Sequence record: MH791411.1
DNA: 64,000 bases
Origin: Escherichia phage Ecwhy_1
Direction: 5' to 3' (one strand)
Position 1 is the stretch's first letter, and the number at the start of each line of letters is the position of its first letter. A model generated the notes under the pieces. It made no database searches, had not been told where the DNA came from, and worked only from the letters and a program-made list of their open reading frames with translations. A program made the translations under genes and the position numbers. This document shows, piece by piece, positions 10,022-63,987 of the stretch.

Positions 10022-10828
10022 TTTGTTACTCTTGTCCTTGTACCACACAAATGTTTTTACTGGTGGGTACTTTTCATTCTTTGGTGGTTCCGGCATATCA
10101 TACACAGTTGCATTTCTGAATTTTAAAATGTATGAATCCATTAAACGAATTATACAATAGTTCATGCACTTTTGTGCACGTTCTTTCCAAAAATGTTTAT
10201 ATGGTTCTGGACACCCAAGATAATCCAATTTGTACATACCCATAGCAGCTTGCATAAAGCGTTGGGCAGAGAACTTACGCTTGTCTACCTTACTAGCTCG
10301 ATGCTGGTCACATGTCCAACTAGAGATACCAGGGAGATGACAGAATAAATCAAAACTCACCATACTATCAAAGTACTTGTTATGACCGTTCAACTCTCCA
10401 TAAAATACCGCTTCGGAAACAGTTTCATATAGTGAGTAATTTGTATGTATATGTTCATTGTCAAATATAGCTTTTAGATCTTTGTAAGTTTCTGGTACTG
10501 GTGGCTCTGGTAACACTTCACCGAACGTCTCTAAGCACCAAATCTTCCACAAGCCTTTCGTAAATTTTACTTCAAGTTCTTTATCGCTGTCAATATAAAA
10601 AGTTTTCTCATTGATAAAAACTTTTCGTGCCATGTATGCTTTGAATACCGCATCAGGGTCGATATCTTCACGTTTGATATCGTCCCATCCTTTACCGATT
10701 CGAGAAATTTCGAATCGTCTCATATACATTCTACATGCCAAATCTTTAGTTGTACTACGATGATACTTGTCGTCTTGGTGAAGTTTGGTAGTCTCATGGA
10801 GAGATTTAAGCATGTTTAAAATTCTCAT
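10010..10828 (-). CDS. hypothetical protein (272 aa)
   Basis: ORF track. Confidence 0.5.
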   Translation of the reverse strand: MRILNMLKSLHETTKLHQDDKYHRSTTKDLACRMYMRRFEISRIGKGWDDIKREDIDPDAVFKAYMARKVFINEKTFYIDSDKELEVKFTKGLWKIWCLETFGEVLPEPPVPETYKDLKAIFDNEHIHTNYSLYETVSEAVFYGELNGHNKYFDSMVSFDLFCHLPGISSWTCDQHRASKVDKRKFSAQRFMQAAMGMYKLDYLGCPEPYKHFWKERAQKCMNYCIIRLMDSYILKFRNATVYDMPEPPKNEKYPPVKTFVWYKDKSNKRMH

Positions 10829-11505
10829 CGTAACACCAAATACTTCCCATCTTTACCTACTACATACTGATTACCGCTACGTAGGACGCTATAACTTTCA
10901 CCTAGTACCGAACTTAAGCGAGATGTATCTACCTGCGTATCGTTCGATAGAAGCTGTTTTACGTATGCTTCTGACACAAAGCCACTACCAGTACTGTAAT
11001 GTAGTTTACCATATGCAGTGTTTAGTGCAAGCATGTGACCTTCTTTAACAACAGATACACCAGCAAAGTCTAAAAATTCACTGATGGATTTAGGAATACC
11101 CAAATCGATACGTTGTTGAATTTCATCAAAATCAACATCAATCGGATCATTCACACCATAAAGCTGAATCTTCCAGCCAGGATTTGGGCAAATGTTTTCA
11201 ATAGTTTTGATAAGACGAAGTAGGTTTTCTGGAAATTCCGCATCACGTTCCATTTCAACGAATACCTGATAACGACCATCCAGGTTAGGTGTTTCAGCAG
11301 CTTCAGTATCAACTGCATCAATTGGAGACTTCTCAATAAAAGATGACAGGTCATATGCAGCATCAAAGTTGTTTAGTACTTGAAACATAACAACGATATT
11401 ACTATCTTCAATCTTAGGAGTATATTCATCTACACTAATAATAGGATGAATCAAATCCTTTAGTACTTGTGGACGTAAACCTTGTTCATTTAGTTTCTTT
11501 TTCAT
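10825..11505 (-). CDS. hypothetical protein (226 aa)
   Basis: ORF track; 4-nt overlaps with both neighbours. Confidence 0.5.
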   Translation of the reverse strand: MKKKLNEQGLRPQVLKDLIHPIISVDEYTPKIEDSNIVVMFQVLNNFDAAYDLSSFIEKSPIDAVDTEAAETPNLDGRYQVFVEMERDAEFPENLLRLIKTIENICPNPGWKIQLYGVNDPIDVDFDEIQQRIDLGIPKSISEFLDFAGVSVVKEGHMLALNTAYGKLHYSTGSGFVSEAYVKQLLSNDTQVDTSRLSSVLGESYSVLRSGNQYVVGKDGKYLVLR

Positions 11506-12068
11506 TGCATACCACCTTGTTGTACATCATCAGATACTTCTACATCTAAATCAACATCTTCACCAGTAATTGGCTCATCTGATGGTTCTTGTGCATTCAT
11601 AGGATTACTATTGAACTCGGAAGCCATTAGTTTGTATTCGTCAAAACTTTCAGGGTTGATTAGGTTTCTAGGAATTTGTACACGAACCAATAGAACTGGA
11701 ATTCGTTCATTTTTCGGAATACGAACAGAACCAGATTGCGTTGCCACACTCTTCATATCAGCCTGACGGTTAGGTTCTTGAATAGGTGTAATTTCATAAT
11801 CTGCTTTCACATATACCTTAGTCCCGTGCTTCTCAAGAATTGAGAATGCAGTAGGATCAGGGAAATTCTCACGATAGTATTTGAATGTCACAGTACACCA
11901 GTACTTACTAACAATCGGACCTTCAACGAGTTCACCTTCGATGATACCATGATATGCGTACAAATCATTATCATCAAAATATTTTTCAACAGCCAGAAGT
12001 ATATCTAGCATACCGCTGTTATCATACAACTGCTGGACTGCATTATCTGTATAATCTAAATCATCCAT
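11502..12068 (-). CDS. hypothetical protein (188 aa), acidic C-terminus
   Basis: ORF track. Confidence 0.5.
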   Translation of the reverse strand: MDDLDYTDNAVQQLYDNSGMLDILLAVEKYFDDNDLYAYHGIIEGELVEGPIVSKYWCTVTFKYYRENFPDPTAFSILEKHGTKVYVKADYEITPIQEPNRQADMKSVATQSGSVRIPKNERIPVLLVRVQIPRNLINPESFDEYKLMASEFNSNPMNAQEPSDEPITGEDVDLDVEVSDDVQQGGMQ

Positions 12069-12120: not shown

Positions 12121-12151
12121 AAAAAACAATAAAAGGGGATTAAATAATCCC
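12121..12151. terminator. intrinsic terminator hairpin (GGGGATTA/TAATCCCC), T-rich on both sides
   Basis: hairpin 12134-12151 flanked by A-run upstream and ATTGTTTTT downstream; after the stop of 12168..12794. Confidence 0.5.
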
Positions 12152-12167
12152 CATTGTTTTTACTATA

Positions 12168-12794
12168 TTATTGGTAATATTTCGACAGTACTGAATAGAT
12201 TTTTAAACGTAGTTCATCCCAGTTGTTAACATAGTCATACCCATAACCATTTTTATACATATGATTGTGGGACGCTCGCATCATAACTGATGGGATACCC
12301 AATTCCATTGATGTTTCAATATTATTGATATAATCATCAATCATCAGTTTTACGTCATATCGTTCTTTTAATTCTACTAGTGCTTCATGCTTAGATTCAT
12401 TCATTTCAACAATGATGATTTCATCAAAACATGTCTCACCAAATACATGCATAAGATTAGTATTGCGAAGTACCTCGCTATAACCTTTCTTACCACACTT
12501 AGTCAGTACTATGAATTTTTCCTTGTAAAAACGATCACGCAGTTCATGCATAATACTTACAGTGTTAGTTTCTACAGGTTTTAGTAATCCAAACATATAC
12601 GAACGTTGATTGAATTCAGTAATGATCTCTTGAACTTTTTCTCGTGAAACACCAAACCATTCAGATAAATCGTATGCGAGTGGGTATGGTGTTGTTGGGT
12701 TGATATCATATTGGAGTTTTGCGTATTCTCCTAATGAACCAATGTGATCTAGTAGTACTTCATCACAGTCGAATACAATACAACGGTCTTTCAT
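12168..12794 (-). CDS. HAD-superfamily phosphatase, possible 5'(3')-deoxyribonucleotidase
   Basis: motif I FDCDEVLLD (DxD) near the N-terminus and LMIDDYINN (DD) later. Confidence 0.45.
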   Translation of the reverse strand: MKDRCIVFDCDEVLLDHIGSLGEYAKLQYDINPTTPYPLAYDLSEWFGVSREKVQEIITEFNQRSYMFGLLKPVETNTVSIMHELRDRFYKEKFIVLTKCGKKGYSEVLRNTNLMHVFGETCFDEIIIVEMNESKHEALVELKERYDVKLMIDDYINNIETSMELGIPSVMMRASHNHMYKNGYGYDYVNNWDELRLKIYSVLSKYYQ

Positions 12795-13747
12795 TACATG
12801 TTCCCCGAACAGATTAGGTCAATCTCACACAGTAATGCACTGAGATTCATTTCACGGTCAGACACAGTAGCTTGTTTAACAACAGCGTCACGAATCTTAA
12901 CCTTAATTTTCATTAGAGTAATTTCATCAGTACTGAACATTTCTGCATTACGATACAGATAAGAGAAGAATGCATCCATCTCATCATCAGGAATGTTTTG
13001 CACGATCTGCTCACGCATTTGACGAATGTTACCAGCTTTTAGTGCATCAATAATGGCAGTACGATACCCAGCAGAGTTCTCAATACTGTCTTCTAGTTTT
13101 ACAAGTTTACCATCGACTACTGAACTTTGCAATACGTTTAGCGTTTTGCGGAAATCAGGATATGAAGCATTGATGTATTTTTGTACTTGTTCAATACTTT
13201 CATCAGTACTTAGATCTACTCCTTCTGCCAATAGTACGTTGTAGATGCGTGACATGAATTGTTCCATATCATGCTTCTCAATGGTGATGACCTGAACACG
13301 AGAGATAATAGGTTTCTGAATCTTATGTGGTTCATTACTGGTAAGAATGAAACGAGCATTTTCATGGTAATCTTCCATGACACGTTTCAAGCTACCCTGT
13401 GCTTTGTGGTTCATTTGTTCCATTTCTTCCAGAACAAATACACGATAACGACCAAAACATGATAGTTTTGCTGCTGCATCAATTTTGTCACGAACAGCAT
13501 CGATACCTTCATCTGACATATTCAGTGTTGTTACATCACTAGGGTCAAGGTGTCCGTTAGCTTCCAGACCATTCAGTAGTACTTTGATTGCTGAAGTTTT
13601 TCCTGTCCCTGCTGGTCCAAAAAATCCAATATGTGGGATATCACCAGTACGAATCCATTCTTCCATCTTCTGACGTAGGGCTTCGTTCTTAGATACATAA
13701 TCTTCCATAGTTTGTGGGCGGTATTTTTCAGTCCATAATGTAGTCAT
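12794..13747 (-). CDS. 44: clamp loader large subunit (RFC-like AAA+), gp44-like
   Basis: EKYRP RFC box, Walker A GPAGTGKTS, Walker B region VFVLEE, SRV/SRC-like sensor; length 317 aa similar to T4 gp44. Confidence 0.8.
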   Translation of the reverse strand: MTTLWTEKYRPQTMEDYVSKNEALRQKMEEWIRTGDIPHIGFFGPAGTGKTSAIKVLLNGLEANGHLDPSDVTTLNMSDEGIDAVRDKIDAAAKLSCFGRYRVFVLEEMEQMNHKAQGSLKRVMEDYHENARFILTSNEPHKIQKPIISRVQVITIEKHDMEQFMSRIYNVLLAEGVDLSTDESIEQVQKYINASYPDFRKTLNVLQSSVVDGKLVKLEDSIENSAGYRTAIIDALKAGNIRQMREQIVQNIPDDEMDAFFSYLYRNAEMFSTDEITLMKIKVKIRDAVVKQATVSDREMNLSALLCEIDLICSGNM

Positions 13748-13773: not shown

Positions 13774-14043
13774 TTATGAAATCCAATCTGCATAATCATA
13801 CAACAATGCAGTGAATAAGTCTTCTGTCATTTCAAGTTGATTAAACAAAAAATTAAATGAGTTTGCTTTGTTCTTCACACCCATTGCTTCGGCCTGGGCT
13901 GATACGATAAGTAAGTACTTAAACATATCATGAGAAACTTCATATACGTACTTCGTGTTAGTTCTATCTTCAAACATAAATCGTCCATTTTTAGAAACTA
14001 ACGTAACGTCAGAAAAACTATATTTTCCATCATCAGTTATCAT
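13774..14043 (-). CDS. hypothetical protein (89 aa)
   Basis: ORF track. Confidence 0.4.
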   Translation of the reverse strand: MITDDGKYSFSDVTLVSKNGRFMFEDRTNTKYVYEVSHDMFKYLLIVSAQAEAMGVKNKANSFNFLFNQLEMTEDLFTALLYDYADWIS

Positions 14044-14099
14044 GTATTTTCATCCAAATAAAAAGCCCAGATAATATATCCGAGCTTTAGATTTATGTT

Positions 14100-14426
14100 T
14101 TAACGACCAAATGTTTGAGCAGAGATGCGTGGATCAGTGTCAGATACCAAACTTACTGCTGCTGGATAATCAACGAGATTCATTTTAATACCATCAATCT
14201 CAATAGTTCTCGACCAACGACCGTGGTCAATTAGAATCCATTGTCCTTCTTTGATATCGGTAATGTCTTCACCAACAGAATATACTTTAGCCCAACGACA
14301 ACGAATACCACGTATCTTACCATCATCACTTGTCAGTACAATACCACCTGCGGTTTTACGCTCACCATGTTCTAGTTCAGTTACAATAACTTTACCTTTA
14401 CAAGCTGTCATTACTTTATTGGTCAT
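14100..14426 (-). CDS. Cpn10/GroES-like co-chaperonin (gp31-like?)
   Basis: KTAGGIVL...VYSVGEDI...EGQWILID resembles the GroES SAGGIVL...VLAVG...VGDIVIF pattern. Confidence 0.4.
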   Translation of the reverse strand: MTNKVMTACKGKVIVTELEHGERKTAGGIVLTSDDGKIRGIRCRWAKVYSVGEDITDIKEGQWILIDHGRWSRTIEIDGIKMNLVDYPAAVSLVSDTDPRISAQTFGR

Positions 14427-14837: not shown

Positions 14838-15356
14838 CTACCATTTCAAAAATTCATTTACATCTAGTTTATACTTCAAAGAATCAACCATATGCAAATC
14901 AATCAGGAACAAACAATACGAAGCCACTGAACTACCACGCCCAAGACCCCAAAAAATATTGTGCTCTTCCATATAATCAACTAACCAGATCATACATCTT
15001 AAAAGCTTAGTCATGTTGTAATGTTCAAACAAATCAATCTCATACATTACACGTTCACGGGCTTCATCCGATGTACATTTCTGTAAAAAGTACTCACGCA
15101 AGTTGATGTTATCGTACACTGGATCATAACGCCATAGTTCATGGTTTTTATCATGTTCTATTGTATAATCCAGCATACGCTGTTCTAAACCAAATTTTTT
15201 ACAATTATCGTTAAATTTCAATCGTTCCGGTTCATCAATCTCCTGTAGCTGTAAGTACTGAATATCTGCACCACAGTTGATTGCATACACGACTGCATTA
15301 AGGTTACATTTTACATCACCATTGGGACTTATAAATCTGTTTCCTTGTACTTTCAT
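14838..15356 (-). CDS. family-C DNA polymerase (Pol III alpha/DnaE-type) palm, N-terminal fragment ending before the catalytic DxD
   Basis: YEIDLFEHYNMTKLLRCMIWLVDYMEEHNIFWGLGRGSSVASYCLFLIDLHMVDSLKYKLDVNEFLKW aligns by eye to DnaE ...ELDVIIQMGFPGYFLIV...[36 protein letters not shown]. Confidence 0.55.
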   Translation of the reverse strand: MKVQGNRFISPNGDVKCNLNAVVYAINCGADIQYLQLQEIDEPERLKFNDNCKKFGLEQRMLDYTIEHDKNHELWRYDPVYDNINLREYFLQKCTSDEARERVMYEIDLFEHYNMTKLLRCMIWLVDYMEEHNIFWGLGRGSSVASYCLFLIDLHMVDSLKYKLDVNEFLKW

Positions 15357-33616: not shown

Positions 33617-34390
33617 TTATGTATTAATTTTATGACCCAATTTATATGATAGCCAATGGATATCACTAATTCCTTCTTGTGAACCCAAGTGTAGTGTAAG
33701 TAGTTCATTCCATGTCAAAACTGTATTATTGTCAGGTGTATGAGCATTGTATCGAGCCATACCATCGGCACATGGGTCCAACGCGAGTATTTGATTACCC
33801 GTAATAGTTTTTGCTGGTGCTTCTAACCCCATCAATGAGCGTATATCATCCGATAGTATTTGAAATGCGGATACTGCTGCAACATTTAATGCAGTAATAT
33901 TATCTTTGATAAAATCAACCGTTAAAGTTTGATAATATGAAATATAGTTCTTATCAATATAATCCCATTTATCTTTAATGAAATCAAGTGTTAGTTTTTG
34001 GTATCTGGAAATTTCCGACATTACACCATCTCTAAATTCAACAAGGTCATTCCATTTGTCTTGAATAAAATCTTGTGTTAGTTTTTGATACTTAGCAACA
34101 GTATCCAGAAAGTTATCTTTGAAGTCATTCCATTTTTCCATAATCAATTCCATTGGCATGACTACATATTGTGCAATAACATTTTTATCAAACCACTCCC
34201 ACTTTTCTTTAAGAAAATCAGTTGTCATTGTTTGATATCGAGCTAACATATTAGGGTTCATTTTATCAAAATGTTTTTTTATAAAGTCTTGTGGGAGTTT
34301 TTGATAGCGAACAATCATATCCATATCAAGATCATCCCAAAATTCTTCTATGAATCCAATATCTATTGGACTACGATAGTCAACTTTCAT
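33617..34390 (-). CDS. tandem-repeat protein (six copies of a roughly 20-aa RYQxLTxDFIKDKW motif) between nrdA and nrdB
   Basis: RYQKLPQDFIKKHF / RYQTMTTDFLKEKW / QYVVMPMELIMEKW / KYQKLTQDFIQDKW / RYQKLTLDFIKDKW / YYQTLTVDFIKDNI. Confidence 0.5.
   Translation of the reverse strand: MKVDYRSPIDIGFIEEFWDDLDMDMIVRYQKLPQDFIKKHFDKMNPNMLARYQTMTTDFLKEKWEWFDKNVIAQYVVMPMELIMEKWNDFKDNFLDTVAKYQKLTQDFIQDKWNDLVEFRDGVMSEISRYQKLTLDFIKDKWDYIDKNYISYYQTLTVDFIKDNITALNVAAVSAFQILSDDIRSLMGLEAPAKTITGNQILALDPCADGMARYNAHTPDNNTVLTWNELLTLHLGSQEGISDIHWLSYKLGHKINT
33910..34310. repeat. imperfect coding tandem repeats, about 60 bp period, six copies
   Basis: periodic ttttgata / tttttggtatct / ttttgatacttagc / gtttgatatcgagc / tttttgatagcgaac motifs on the plus strand. 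Confidence 0.5.
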
Positions 34391-46191: not shown

Positions 46192-46545
46192 ATGAATCAA
46201 TATAATACTATTCCACCATTTATCACGGTAGTTCAGTGTGATGGTAAAACTTTCATTGGTATTATCAAGATAAAAAGTAAACAGTATACTACTCTTTACT
46301 GCTTTGATGATATGGATGAACCAATGCAAGATGAATTGTTGGGTATAGCACATGATTGGTGGTGGCAAAGCAACAGGTCAATTCCAGTCTGTCTATTCTT
46401 CCAAGAAGAGATGGAGAAATTTGAACCTTACACACAGAGATTCGATACCCCTGCGGTGAATTTCGTTTGTGGTCCAGTAGTTTCTTTAAGTGATTTGCCA
46501 CAAAAACGCATCAAGCGTCGTAATGTGGCTCTTAAGAAGAAGTAA
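46192..46545 (+). CDS. hypothetical protein on plus strand (117 aa)
   Basis: plus-strand ORF filling a gap in minus-strand coding; TATAAAT motif at 46158-46164 upstream; ends overlap convergently with 46532..47170. Confidence 0.4.
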   Translation: MNQYNTIPPFITVVQCDGKTFIGIIKIKSKQYTTLYCFDDMDEPMQDELLGIAHDWWWQSNRSIPVCLFFQEEMEKFEPYTQRFDTPAVNFVCGPVVSLSDLPQKRIKRRNVALKKK

Positions 46546-47170
46546 GATGTTCAACTAAAGCGTTAAGTTGAACTACAATCATTAAGCTGTATGCATAAGC
46601 ATGTGGCTTTTTGAAATATCGTAACTTATTTCCTGCTTGGTCTGTGCCAATAGTACTGTAATCCCATATAGTGGATTCAACTTCACTCCATGTATTCATA
46701 CTTTGGCACTGCCTTTTTCCAGGACGAATCATTGCAATAAACATTGCAAGTTCATCAATGGATTTAGGTTTCCACACATTTAATAATGTAACATGTTTTT
46801 TAATCTGTGAAAGATGTTCAACTATTTCTGGTTCTAACAGAAGATCCCAATTAGGTTCCTGATTCATTAGTTCTTTTAAATGTGCTCTATCACGAACATA
46901 CTGGTAAGCCGATTGTGACAGGATATCTACCTTTTGATATCCCAAGCGTTCGGCTTCTTTATATTGTATGCTGGCTAAACCAGTGATAGGGTCAATTGGT
47001 ATATTATCAAAATGAACACCACTGTTATGGGGGATTAAACCATCCTCCGTAATTTTTTCTGTACTTCGCACACAAGGAAGCTGTGCAATCACTGACTTAC
47101 TATCTTTAAAGTCAATGTCGATATCTGTTCGTGCTTTACGGTACGAATTAGAATTTGTCGAATCCTGCAT
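46532..47170 (-). CDS. family-C DNA polymerase (Pol III alpha/DnaE-type) palm, C-terminal fragment starting at the catalytic DIDIDF
   Basis: [11 protein letters not shown] ~ DnaE [29 protein letters not shown] ~ [35 protein letters not shown] ~ DMIALVALFRPGPLQ; thumb region apparently absent. Confidence 0.55.
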   Translation of the reverse strand: [212 protein letters not shown]

Positions 47171-47477: not shown

Positions 47478-48184
47478 AATCCAGCCTCACGTAGCATACT
47501 TTTTATTTCATCACATTCCTTTTTGTACTTTATAGTTTTAACCTCAAAGTAACTAGGATCAATGTATTTAAGTATATACTCGATTTCAGAGTTAGAGAGA
47601 TTCTTGAAAAACTTATTAGTACTTTCTTTTGGTGCTAACCAGATAATCCAAGGTGAAATCTTACCACTCTCAATCCATGCAATTGCACGGGCAGAACTCA
47701 CATTGGAAAAAAACTTATTCCACTCCAAGTTCAGATTCTGACCCCATTCCACCATCGCAACAACACTACGGGAAACCGCAGCATTGGGAGATTCAGAACG
47801 AATACAATCTAATATCCATTCATCCTTTGCTTTATAAGTACTCCATTCCATAATAGGACGGTTTCTTACAATTAGACTTTTCACAAAACCATCAATATCT
47901 AAAATATCACGGTTGTTCAAATAATAAATTGCAAAATCATAAAAATCACTAAAGTACTTTGATTTTATAAAAGCCATTAATGGTTCAACTCCCTTCTTGA
48001 AAGGGAAATGGTTTAACTCCATGAATTGCATATAAATGCGAAAAGCCTCCCTCATGGGGCGGCTATCACGATCTTCGTAGCGGTCACGTTTAACACACTT
48101 ATGTGTGTTAACTGTGTCTTCGCGTTTAAATTCTTTATCACAGAACTTACATTTGTATACGGGACTACTTGATTTCTTTGCCAT
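47474..48184 (-). CDS. hypothetical protein with N-terminal C2H2-like zinc finger
   Basis: YKCKFCDKEFKREDTVNTHKC. Confidence 0.5.
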   Translation of the reverse strand: MAKKSSSPVYKCKFCDKEFKREDTVNTHKCVKRDRYEDRDSRPMREAFRIYMQFMELNHFPFKKGVEPLMAFIKSKYFSDFYDFAIYYLNNRDILDIDGFVKSLIVRNRPIMEWSTYKAKDEWILDCIRSESPNAAVSRSVVAMVEWGQNLNLEWNKFFSNVSSARAIAWIESGKISPWIIWLAPKESTNKFFKNLSNSEIEYILKYIDPSYFEVKTIKYKKECDEIKSMLREAGL

Positions 48185-49010
48185 ATTTCTTACATTCTTC
48201 TTTAAATAATTTCATCATTGATTTCATTTCTTTCTCTTGCAAACCTATGTCTTCAAGGAAAGACTCGAATGTTTTTTTGTTATATTGCAACAAAACAATT
48301 TTATATTCATCTTCGTTCATTTGAGTTGCGATTGAATCTGGCTGTGTACTTTTAATGAGTTCAAATAATTCATTATTAGCACGCTTAAAACTCTTGGAAA
48401 AGTTTAACCAGTTTCGTGGCAATTCCTTACCACCCAACATATCATGAACAGAACATAGTAGTTGATATACAAGTTCAGGGTGTTCTTTCATATCCCAGAA
48501 CCCATCATTAACCATATCATTCAACATAATCAACTGATAACGTACAACGTCACTGTCAACCAATGAGATGATCTGTCCACCAGCAATACTAAATTCAGTC
48601 ATTGCTGCAATCAACTTGTTAGCATCATCATTGCTTTGTACGGCAAACTTGATACGCCAATCATAGTCACTGTGACAGTACTTAGTAACTGATGTTACAT
48701 TAACACCAGTACTATTGAGTTCTTTGACAAGTTCAGTTAGTGCTTCTTTACCACCAGCTTTCCACTTACCAAATACGTTTTCCACTTTACTACTAGGGAA
48801 AGTTACTTGAAGTGAGTCATCAAGTGAACTTACCCAACGAAGTACGGTATAAGGTGTAAATTCCTTACGCTCATCTTCGGTCATGTCATTATAGTATTTG
48901 TAATCTGCACGGTCAATATGTTTTAGAAATTCAGCAATAGAAAATGTATGCTGGGTTGGTTTATCGTTTTCGTCTACTGACTTAGCTTTAATATTACTGA
49001 AATCTAACAC
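48165..49010 (-). CDS. hypothetical protein (281 aa)
   Basis: ORF track. Confidence 0.5.
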   Translation of the reverse strand: MLDFSNIKAKSVDENDKPTQHTFSIAEFLKHIDRADYKYYNDMTEDERKEFTPYTVLRWVSSLDDSLQVTFPSSKVENVFGKWKAGGKEALTELVKELNSTGVNVTSVTKYCHSDYDWRIKFAVQSNDDANKLIAAMTEFSIAGGQIISLVDSDVVRYQLIMLNDMVNDGFWDMKEHPELVYQLLCSVHDMLGGKELPRNWLNFSKSFKRANNELFELIKSTQPDSIATQMNEDEYKIVLLQYNKKTFESFLEDIGLQEKEMKSMMKLFKEECKKYGKEIK

Positions 49011-61934: not shown

Positions 61935-61966
61935 AAGGAGAGCTTTTGCTCTCCTTTTTTTATTTG
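61935..61966. terminator. bidirectional intrinsic terminator (GGAGAGC-UUU-GCUCUCC + U-run)
   Basis: hairpin 61936-61955 then TTTTTTTATTTG on plus strand, A-rich upstream; lies between convergent genes. Confidence 0.65.
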
Positions 61967-62685
61967 TATGAACGGAACCCTTCAGGTAAACCAGGTAGAT
62001 TCTCTAACCCTTCGTTCGCATTCACTAGCTTTACGTCATAATCATCACTGAAATCATCCGTAGCTAGTTTACGCCCCATGTCTCTAACGAAGTTGTCAAT
62101 AATTTCTTCTTCGTCATTGCCTGGATGACCTTCCGCTTTTAACTTTTTCCAAAAGTATTCATTATAATCAAAAACAAATTCAACTTCATTTGTTTCTGGA
62201 TTAAGTACTACATCCAAATCAATCCAAGGTTCTTTACGTAAAGTAAAGATTTCCTTTGAATACTCTTGTTGTGTAATCTCTTCATAACGATATGCAAACT
62301 CGATAGCTTTAAGACGTTTGTCATCACCATCAGGCATTAGTTCGATTACTTCCATATCATACTCTTTTTGAGTAATTGCACCAGTACTTAATTTAGCATC
62401 AAGTAATTTTACATTATACTCATCACGGGTAATCTTGGAATACTTCAATTGTACATCTGCCTGTGCTATTAGATAATCAAGAGTTTCTAATACATTGTAT
62501 TTCTTTTTGATATCCAACTGTGCTACATCAACTTCATATGGTGTTAGATATGTAAGTTCTGCAACTAACATATCAGCTTCATAATCATCGTTATAGTAGT
62601 ATGCTTTCGCAATCTCTTTCGCTTTACCAGAAAGTCCCCAATGAGCGGGGACCATCCAGAAAGGAATAAACCTTTTTTTAGCCAT
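61960..62685 (-). CDS. hypothetical protein (about 240 aa)
   Basis: ORF track 61960..62712; start taken at MAKKRFIPFW to limit overlap with the upstream gene. Confidence 0.45.
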   Translation of the reverse strand: MAKKRFIPFWMVPAHWGLSGKAKEIAKAYYYNDDYEADMLVAELTYLTPYEVDVAQLDIKKKYNVLETLDYLIAQADVQLKYSKITRDEYNVKLLDAKLSTGAITQKEYDMEVIELMPDGDDKRLKAIEFAYRYEEITQQEYSKEIFTLRKEPWIDLDVVLNPETNEVEFVFDYNEYFWKKLKAEGHPGNDEEEIIDNFVRDMGRKLATDDFSDDYDVKLVNANEGLENLPGLPEGFRSYK

Positions 62686-62980
62686 TTGATTTCTTACCAA
62701 AAATTTCTTCAATTTTCATCACATAATATGTGTCTTCACCACCACCAAGATCTTCAGTGATAGGAGTGTTTAGTGATGAACGACCGAATACAACCATATC
62801 ACCAACACAAATATTATGTTCTGCAATTTGCCCATTAGGTAGTACTTTACCTTCACCAACTGAAATCACCATACCAACACATGGTGGTTCCACGTTTCCT
62901 AGGATAATACCACCAGTACTTTTATTCTGTGCTTCAATTTGACGAACCAGTACATAATCGTTAATCATTTTAATTTTCAT
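62678..62980 (-). CDS. Cpn10/GroES-like co-chaperonin
   Basis: from MKIKMINDYVLVRQIEAQNKSTGGIILG...VISVGEGKVLPNGQ...VGDMVVF...YYVMKIEEI, closely following the GroES pattern PLHDRVIVKR...KSAGGIVL...VLAVGNG...VGDIVIF. Confidence 0.55.
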   Translation of the reverse strand: MKIKMINDYVLVRQIEAQNKSTGGIILGNVEPPCVGMVISVGEGKVLPNGQIAEHNICVGDMVVFGRSSLNTPITEDLGGGEDTYYVMKIEEIFGKKSNG

Positions 62981-62981
62981 A

Positions 62982-63188
62982 TCAGTAACCTCCAGTGTTT
63001 GCAAACCATTTACCACGGAAATAAAGATTTGCACCTTTATCACCTGGGGTAAAAACTTCCAACTTCATAGTCTTCTCACCATTACATTGAGGACAATCAT
63101 GAGGTTCTTCACGATTGGCAATTTTTACAATCTTTTCTAAACTGTGTTTACATTCTTCTTTTTCACAACGATATGTATATAATGGCAT
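62982..63188 (-). CDS. zinc-ribbon protein (FmdB-like CxxC...CxxC)
   Basis: MPLYTYRCEKEEC...HDCPQCNG. Confidence 0.5.
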   Translation of the reverse strand: MPLYTYRCEKEECKHSLEKIVKIANREEPHDCPQCNGEKTMKLEVFTPGDKGANLYFRGKWFANTGGY

Positions 63189-63255: not shown

Positions 63256-63987
63256 TTAGCAACCTGTTACGTAAATCTTGTATACCGCAATACCAGTGTC
63301 TAGAGTTACGTTTAGCATACCAGTTTTGGTAATACCTAGGGTAACAGATTCTGCGTTAGAAACGCGGGATAGAGCTTGTAGAACACGGTCAATGTTATAA
63401 CCAAAACCAAGACCTAGTTCACCTTCAGTTTTAGAGAATGCTAGTGCACCAACGTGGTTACTTTTGTTCTTCTCACCAACGTGGAAGTAAAGAGTATCAC
63501 CTTCAGTGTATGGAGTTACTAGAGAACTGAAAGATTTAAACACACCAGAGAAGCTTTTTAGTTCCTGAACTTTAGCTGCACTAGGTGTAACCTGTACGTC
63601 ATATGGTTGTTCGTGGAAACGAGGCTGGGCTGGAATTAGTTTTTCTGGTTGAACCATGAAAGTAGTACTTGCATCTTCTGCTTTGAATGCTAGGCTCTTA
63701 ACTGCACCATCTTTCAAGTTAGAAGTGATAGTAGTTCCTTCAGTACTATAAGTTTTTAGAGACATTAGACCCTGTAGAAGACCTAGGTTACCAAGACCAA
63801 AACGACCTTGAACTTCTGGTACGTCTTCTTTAGTGTGAGCACGCATAACTAGGGTGCGGTCATCGGTGTATGCTTCCATGTAAACACGCTGTCCATCACC
63901 ACGGTCTTCACTGCTAACTGCGATACAAGAAAAGTCGATGCCGTTGGTAGTGTTAACTAGGTCACGTAGTACGTTGCGTAGATCCAT
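63256..63987 (-). CDS. 45: sliding clamp, gp45-like
   Basis: N-terminal MDLRNVLRDLVNTTNGIDFS resembles the start of T4 gp45 (from memory); about 240 aa; clamp genes otherwise absent from the window. Confidence 0.6.
   Translation of the reverse strand: MDLRNVLRDLVNTTNGIDFSCIAVSSEDRGDGQRVYMEAYTDDRTLVMRAHTKEDVPEVQGRFGLGNLGLLQGLMSLKTYSTEGTTITSNLKDGAVKSLAFKAEDASTTFMVQPEKLIPAQPRFHEQPYDVQVTPSAAKVQELKSFSGVFKSFSSLVTPYTEGDTLYFHVGEKNKSNHVGALAFSKTEGELGLGFGYNIDRVLQALSRVSNAESVTLGITKTGMLNVTLDTGIAVYKIYVTGC

Follow-up and report, generated by a model that had tools for sequence, protein, structure and literature searches.

The window is a stretch of 64,000 nucleotides from Escherichia phage Ecwhy_1 (sequence record MH791411.1), and every gene discussed here is located on its minus strand. 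At 12168..12794, a gene for a HAD-superfamily phosphatase follows the gene of an AAA+ ATPase that resembles gp44, the clamp-loader ATPase of phage T4. Listed in the direction of reading, the locus comprises:

14062..14088, minus strand: terminator-like hairpin followed by a T run, upstream of the unit formed by the 89-aa, gp44-like and HAD genes (pattern scan and sequence)
13774..14043, minus strand: 89-aa protein (phrog_16539), first gene of a putative three-gene transcription unit
12794..13747, minus strand: clamp-loader AAA+ ATPase, gp44/RFC-small-like, 317 aa (phrog_168, NF001679, motifs)
12168..12794, minus strand: HAD-superfamily phosphatase, NT5C-like, homolog of T4 gp30.2, 208 aa, ATG start (phrog_420, NT5C, motifs)
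12135..12152, minus strand: terminator-like hairpin GGGGATTATTTAATCCCC followed by a T run, 16 nt past the stop codon of the HAD gene (pattern scan and sequence)
11502..12068, minus strand: 188-aa virion-associated protein, phrog_12928 (1.1e-86), not gp62
10825..11505, minus strand: 226-aa virion-associated protein, phrog_13138 (2.3e-115), not gp62

The ATPase matches phrog_168 at 1.7e-78 and the NCBIfam model of the archaeal RFC small subunit (NF001679) at 2.8e-47, and it has a weak match to Gp44_lid. Its hallmark motifs are intact and invariant: Walker A (GPAGTGKTS), Walker B (LEE), sensor 1 (TSN) and the SR finger. In the whole genome of a near-identical phage, 12794..13747 is the sole clamp-loader-type AAA+ gene; a second paralog of this type, RFC-large or delta-like, was sought in the genome and none was found.

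The junction between the ATPase and HAD genes is as tight as the initial annotation had described it, with the HAD gene directly downstream of the gp44-like gene and a boundary nucleotide shared by the two. ORF 12168..12794 follows 12794..13747, the ATPase gene ends in ...AACATGTAA, and the ATG of the HAD gene takes the final A of the TAA stop codon (TAATGAAAGAC; TAATG), which amounts to a 1-base stop/start overlap. The position of the terminator-like hairpins on either side suggests that the 89-aa, gp44-like and HAD genes form one three-gene transcription unit; the HAD gene would then apparently share a transcript with the clamp-loader ATPase gene, and the translation of the two would be coupled. 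RaK2 and GAP32 also have the 89-aa gene ahead of the ATPase gene, an arrangement that is not conserved in more distant relatives.

In T4, gene 62, encoding the A subunit of the clamp loader, follows gene 44, and this order was the expectation under which the HAD gene had attracted attention. T4-like, Ackermannviridae, cyanophage and Otagovirus genomes retain 44 and 62 as adjacent genes. A 6-kb stretch around 12168..12794, however, shares 99.8% identity with the Escherichia phages EC.P1, WPEC5 and fEgEco12 and ~81% with phages 121Q and PBECO4; the lineage is Asteriusvirus, a RaK2-like jumbo myovirus with genomes of ~350-380 kb, and not a T4-type phage. Because the lineage is RaK2-like, the T4 gene order is a poor null expectation: it was borrowed from the wrong lineage, and the ATPase gene resides in a different syntenic block here.

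The gene order common to RaK2 and GAP32 is Pol III alpha fragment, 114-aa, GroES-like, 89-aa, ATPase, HAD, 188-aa, 226-aa and 272-aa. For a broader comparison, IMG/VR was scanned with the ATPase alignment, which yielded 80 loci, or 85 together with close relatives, and the block was defined by the Pol III alpha fragment, 114-aa, GroES-like, ATPase, 188-aa and 226-aa genes. It is present in 48 of the 85 loci; a HAD homolog lies within 6 kb in ten of these 48 and a gp62 match in a single one. The remaining 37 loci lack the block, and 32 of them carry a gp62 gene just downstream of gp44 (28 of 31 if only block-less loci with at least 1.5 kb of downstream sequence are considered). Two loci, L082 and L092, combine hallmarks of the block (Pol III alpha fragment and GroES-like gene) with a gp62-like gene of canonical length 0.6-1.4 kb downstream of gp44; in the intermediate locus L092, both hallmarks are positioned upstream of gp44, and the gp62-like gene is two genes downstream of it. 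Vibrio phage 2.275.O has two small genes between its ATPase gene and its HAD gene. Since a HAD gene is found near the ATPase gene in only 10 of the 48 block loci, the slot after the ATPase gene is variable in the lineage, and the HAD gene need not accompany the clamp loader. The HAD gene happens to occupy this variable slot in RaK2-like phages.

The HAD motifs on which the initial annotation had based its assignment, FDCDEVLLD and LMIDDYINN, are found at residues 8-16 and 150-158. They do not occur there by chance: across 13 aligned sequences, with identities as low as 23%, none of the catalytic residues varies (D9 and D11 of motif I, T98 of motif II, K135 of motif III and D154 of motif IV), and position 153 is D or E throughout. 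The protein matches phrog_420, a PHROG without assigned function, at 1.8e-38. Its match to Pfam NT5C (PF06941) has E = 3.8e-4 and, at 20.8 bits, does not reach the curated cutoff of 24.8; the homolog P0046, which is 73% identical, has a precomputed PF06941 domain. Searched against PDB sequences, the family profile retrieves 3bwv (3.5e-6), human mitochondrial mdN (1mh9, 3e-4) and cytosolic cdN (2jao, 4.9e-4), i.e. 5'(3')-deoxyribonucleotidases top the ranking and no other enzyme class scores better. The likeness to 5'(3')-deoxyribonucleotidases claimed earlier thus holds at the level of sequence profiles, the Pfam score being below its cutoff.

The AlphaFold model of the HAD protein is moderately confident (pLDDT 74, built from a 3-sequence alignment) and has a Rossmann-like core with a helical cap directly after motif I. 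In a Foldseek search with this model, all 28 PDB matches at E <= 1e-3 belong to the HAD superfamily, with TM-scores of only ~0.4-0.5; nucleotidases are not separated from other HAD phosphatases at this level, and the phosphatase domain of T4 Pnkp scores similarly. The protein shares with the NT5C enzymes (human mdN and cdN, 3bwv) the HAD motifs I-IV, a length of ~200 aa and the placement of the cap. It differs from them in that the identity is ~15% or less.

Homologs of the HAD protein were found by tblastn in 136 phage records, comprising all RaK2-like jumbo phages as well as phiM12/phiN3, PA5oct, Rhodobacter phages and a few T4-like phages. T4 itself encodes one: gp30.2 (NP_049815), a member of phrog_420, is homologous over ~190 residues, the DxD motif among them (hhalign 99%, E = 6e-18). 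The T4 protein is longer, with 278 aa and ~80 extra C-terminal residues, and its gene adjoins the DNA ligase gene, not gene 44. A literature search for a characterised phage homolog of the enzyme found none.

By analogy to solved HAD enzymes, the phosphatase may operate in the following manner: Asp9 would act as the nucleophile and form a phospho-aspartyl intermediate, and Asp11 would serve as general acid/base. Thr98 and Lys135 would hold the phosphate, Asp153 and Asp154 would bind Mg2+, on which the enzyme would depend; the helical cap (residues ~11-88) would choose the substrate. Judged from the profile matches, the enzyme is most likely a (deoxy)nucleotidase. Its role would then most likely be to dephosphorylate (deoxy)nucleoside monophosphates and in this way to contribute to the composition of the nucleotide pool while phage DNA is being made.

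Alternatively, the enzyme might not be a mononucleotidase and might act on a different phospho-substrate, such as 3'-phosphate ends of DNA or RNA, phosphoglycolate or a sugar phosphate. In the Foldseek search, 2hi0, which is a putative phosphoglycolate phosphatase (1.8e-5), and 5uj0, the phosphatase domain of T4 Pnkp (7.5e-5), match or beat cdN and mdN, phrog_415 ('polynucleotide kinase') is matched weakly at 0.0018, and the GenBank names of the gene vary between phosphoglycolate phosphatase, phosphoserine phosphatase and 5'-nucleotidase; the NT5C score beneath the Pfam cutoff points in the same direction. On the other hand, the sequence profiles of both Pfam NT5C and the PDB consistently put 5'(3')-deoxyribonucleotidases first, and a homolog as close as P0046 carries the NT5C domain. 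Moreover, the cap emerges right after motif I as in NT5C, whereas the Pnkp domain is capless, and the phage has a separate gene for a polynucleotide kinase. A different substrate is therefore unlikely in our view, though it deserves to be kept in mind.

For the A subunit itself, standard searches come back empty. T4 gp62 corresponds to Pfam PF16790 (Phage_clamp_A) and phrog_225, and Pfam, PHROGs and a narrow gp62 HMM built from 14 sequences detect gp62 nowhere in the genome. The narrow HMM has no match among the six-frame ORFs of the window (best E ~1 among 573 ORFs) or in the complete genome of the near-identical phage vB_Ec-M-J (358 kb; best E = 1.8 among 3167 ORFs). A homolog search with T4 gp62 returned only close T4-like relatives of at least 49% identity, and the profile was not widened by them. 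The RaK2 genome paper likewise states that homologs of gp62 and gp45 were not detectable (PMC3622015).

A gene outside the window, EcMJ_563 of vB_Ec-M-J, bears the name 'clamp loader of DNA polymerase'. It really encodes an AAA+ protein resembling T4 NrdC.10 (phrog_1250), and it was rejected as a candidate because such proteins occur in T4-like phages that also have gp62.

A broadened profile, consisting of the narrow set and 33 metagenomic gp62 sequences, has one single significant match (E = 7.5e-6 within the window, 4.1e-5 genome-wide):

48165..49010, minus strand: diverged homolog of gp62/Phage_clamp_A (clamp-loader A subunit), 281 aa, GTG start (custom profiles and intermediate sequences)

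The protein aligns to the gp62 HMM as two segments on either side of an insertion. Comparison of its family (56-member alignment) with the gp62 alignment gives hhalign 91.3%, E = 9e-7 over 142 columns; the maximum among 38 unrelated families used as controls is 1.7%. In the reverse direction, an HMM of its own family, applied to a set of over 5,700 ORFs from loci with gp44, finds only the gp62 ORFs beside gp44 down to E ~0.1, among them those of L082 (1.6e-14), L092 (1.1e-13) and L072 (2.4e-8), always as two-segment matches. Both HMMs are furthermore matched, at 1e-8 to 1e-28, by proteins of canonical length in L134-L140 (144-165 aa), which are contained in neither profile. The sequence motifs are colinear as well: the N-terminal motif F-x-P-Y-x-V-x-R-W-x-S, a basic W-containing motif (RNWLNFSKSFK versus KRYGKWAK) and the C-terminal helices follow the same order as in gp62 proteins. 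A gene of phage Turkey3 that is 99.6% identical to the ORF is labelled 'sliding-clamp-loader small subunit' in GenBank. Altogether, the family is found in 78 phage records of the RaK2-like jumbo group and in 87 protein clusters.

The ORF at 48165..49010 is homologous to gp62, the link being established by custom profiles and intermediate sequences. The Pfam model PF16790 misses the protein even at E <= 10, and PHROGs give no annotation; this model is narrow, as the intermediate protein of L136 reaches only 15.2 bits with it. A profile search of PDB sequences with the family returned nothing meaningful. Foldseek with the AlphaFold model (pLDDT 81.6, pTM 0.49) did not recover T4 gp62 from the PDB and gave weak ACT/PII/RRM-like matches to the inserted domain; in BFVD, it retrieved the ortholog of GAP32 together with shorter, uncharacterised proteins of phages, one of them a 169-aa protein of Atu_ph07 (E = 4.9e-6). 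By comparison with T4, the gene is displaced: it lies ~34 kb from the ATPase gene (~35 kb in three RaK2-like contigs) and not immediately downstream of it. It is part of a replication cluster in the order UvsW-like helicase, 142-aa, 165-aa, the gp62 homolog, zinc-finger, 109-aa and Pol III alpha finger-like fragment.

The initial annotation had left two options, a gp62 highly diverged among the neighbouring ORFs or a clamp loader that works differently. Of the first option, the high divergence is confirmed, but the gene is not a neighbour. The second is not needed, because a diverged gp62 homolog is encoded in the same window; nothing shows the clamp loader to have an unusual composition, and the gp62 homolog would presumably assemble with four ATPase subunits. 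We consider it quite probable that 12168..12794 encodes a 5'(3')-(deoxy)nucleotidase-type phosphatase that is no substitute for gp62, and that the A subunit is the gp62 homolog at 48165..49010.

These results bear directly on the notion of a clamp loader built unlike that of T4, in which the HAD protein took over the role of gp62 or the loader dispensed with an A subunit. The HAD gene does hold the position of gene 62 in T4 and is apparently translationally coupled to the ATPase gene, and the failure of Pfam, PHROGs and the narrow HMM to find gp62, like the report on RaK2, would fit such a scenario. It is nevertheless strongly disfavoured and most improbable: beyond the existence of the gp62 homolog, the HAD protein keeps all catalytic residues of an active phosphatase and has no similarity to gp62 (hhalign 0.5%, no match to either the narrow or the broadened gp62 HMM), its adjacency to the ATPase gene is missing in 38 of the 48 related loci with the same block, and T4 encodes both gp62 and the HAD homolog gp30.2. 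The protein encoded at 12168..12794 is an ordinary accessory HAD phosphatase, and the gene that was originally flagged is of little importance, being one more phage gene for a HAD nucleotidase-like enzyme with a T4 homolog.

Alternatively, the 89-aa, 188-aa or 226-aa protein, all encoded by conserved neighbours of the ATPase gene, might be the A subunit, diverged beyond recognition. The genes for the 188-aa and 226-aa proteins accompany the ATPase gene in related viral loci, and the 188-aa protein equals T4 gp62 in length. Both belong to PHROGs annotated as virion structural proteins (phrog_12928 and phrog_13138), and their phAPEC6 orthologs, gp150c (188-aa) and gp149c (226-aa), were found by mass spectrometry in purified virions with a coverage of 29-35% (PMC7247149), which argues against a function in clamp loading. 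Detection in virions alone does not exclude a replication role, because the DNA-associated proteins SSB, RecA-like and topoisomerase are also part of the phAPEC6 virion proteome (PMC7247149). The profile comparisons speak against this reading: hhalign against gp62 gives 0.5% for 11502..12068 and 0.1% for 10825..11505, no similarity is seen for 13774..14043 either, and values do not exceed 1.6% for these three, for all eight neighbour families of the window or for 30 neighbour families from related viral loci (0.8% at most with deeper family alignments). The earlier statement that no gp62-like gene is recognisable nearby is thereby corroborated. As the 89-aa gene, in addition, has no conservation outside the close RaK2-like group, and a bona fide gp62 homolog is located elsewhere, an A subunit hidden among these neighbours is hardly credible.

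The 48165..49010 protein deviates from canonical gp62 proteins, which comprise 128-190 aa, by an insertion of ~85 residues (~66-150). The model predicts a beta-alpha-beta-beta-alpha-beta arrangement for it, i.e. a ferredoxin-like domain. This raises the question of whether the protein, despite its homology to gp62, has been repurposed and no longer serves as clamp-loader A subunit. None of the canonical gp62 proteins has the inserted domain, every RaK2-like genome examined carries the gene apart from gp44, and the structural search did not return T4 gp62. Conversely, both gp62 segments flanking the insertion are conserved, the genome has no other gp62-like or clamp-loader-like gene, and the gene is embedded among replication genes. 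Loss of the ancestral function is accordingly quite improbable, and the protein is preferably regarded as the A subunit.

An A subunit that bears an insertion and is unlinked from the ATPase gene is mildly interesting, and the inserted domain represents a small structural novelty for clamp-loader research. One may speculate, with considerable doubt, that the arrangement is functional and lineage-wide: in RaK2-like phages, the A subunit would be unlinked and equipped, between its two conserved helical segments, with an ACT/ferredoxin-like domain as a possible regulatory or docking module, and the vacated slot would have passed to a coupled nucleotidase. If so, the inserted domain could sense a small ligand or tether a part of the replisome, for example the Pol III alpha-like fragments, and the translationally coupled nucleotidase would link dNMP turnover to replication-fork assembly.

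The third component, the sliding clamp, had been placed ~50 kb from the HAD gene, and this is borne out by the following feature:

63256..63987, minus strand: probable gp45-like sliding clamp, 243 aa (fEgEco12 annotation and gp45 profiles)

Its counterpart in fEgEco12, g359, is annotated as 'sliding clamp protein'. A broadened gp45 HMM has its sole window match here (E = 0.011), and the family aligns with the broadened gp45 alignment at hhalign 87.7%, E = 3.4e-6 (control maximum 1.5%); searches of Pfam, PHROGs with assigned function and PDB sequences gave no match. As with the A subunit, remote homology thus points to a probable gp45-like clamp. Most GenBank records list the counterparts of gp62 and gp45 as hypothetical, and the placement of the A subunit and the probable clamp is the gain for annotation; with both in place, these jumbo phages can be taken as conventional users of clamp, ATPase and A subunit.

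Compared with the T4 cluster 45-44-62-regA-43, clamp, ATPase and A subunit are all encoded in this phage, too, but they are spread over ~50 kb, and the ATPase gene has its place in the block of Pol III alpha fragment, 114-aa, GroES-like, ATPase, variable slot and two virion proteins. Two traits of the T4 arrangement have their parallel here: the DNA polymerase gene adjoins the clamp gene, and the ATPase gene still appears translationally coupled to its 3' neighbour.

In the window, two separate small genes code for products that resemble parts of bacterial DNA polymerase III alpha:

14838..15356, minus strand: Pol III alpha-like piece, 172 aa (PF07733, E = 5.8e-9)
46532..47170, minus strand: Pol III alpha-like piece, 212 aa (phrog_11778, ‘DNA polymerase’, plus a weak finger-domain match)

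Each product is too short for a stand-alone polymerase; the gene of the 172-aa piece is syntenic with the gp44-like clamp-loader ATPase gene across the 48 viral loci carrying the conserved gene block. Downstream of this ATPase gene, the genes of two virion-associated proteins of 188 and 226 aa (10825..12068(-)) are kept in many uncultivated jumbo-phage contigs (loci L027-L062); in the first clustering of loci, the former protein was present in 22 and the latter in 16. Such a pairing of structural and replication genes, in the window and in these loci, is odd; SSB, a RecA-like protein and a topoisomerase subunit likewise occur in the virion proteome of phage phAPEC6 (PMC7247149).

The gp62-like protein, the diverged clamp-loader A subunit homolog encoded by 48165..49010(-), contains an inserted domain, for which a ferredoxin/ACT-like fold is predicted and which has invariant motifs of its own (FGKW..GGK and KY.H..YDWRIKF):

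48165..49010, minus strand, residues ~66-150: domain inserted in the gp62-like protein

The ‘clamp loader of DNA polymerase’ annotated in the near-identical phage vB_Ec-M-J lies outside the window:

OQ718158.1 329892..330662 (L020:5971-6741): gene annotated as clamp loader

This candidate was rejected, its product being a T4 NrdC.10-like AAA+ ATPase (phrog_1250, a PHROG without assigned function), and the label is likely a mis-annotation.

Two GroES / T4 gp31-like co-chaperonin genes are present in the window, the second weakly matched by an HMM of the family of the first (E = 0.0099), and repeats characterize two further products:

14100..14426, minus strand: co-chaperonin, near the clamp-loader ATPase gene
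62678..63043, minus strand: co-chaperonin, adjoining the probable gp45-like clamp gene
61960..62712, minus strand: annotated virion structural protein with repeated ‘I-T-x-x-E-Y’ motifs, adjoining the clamp/GroES-like genes
33617..34390, minus strand: tandem-repeat gene, 774 nt, flanked by the genes of the two ribonucleotide reductase subunits

In the product of the last, a unit of roughly 20 aa (RYQKLTxDFIKDKW-like) is repeated in tandem about six times; the gene is found in the window and in phage fEgEco12 (g398) but is missing in the otherwise near-identical vB_Ec-M-J.
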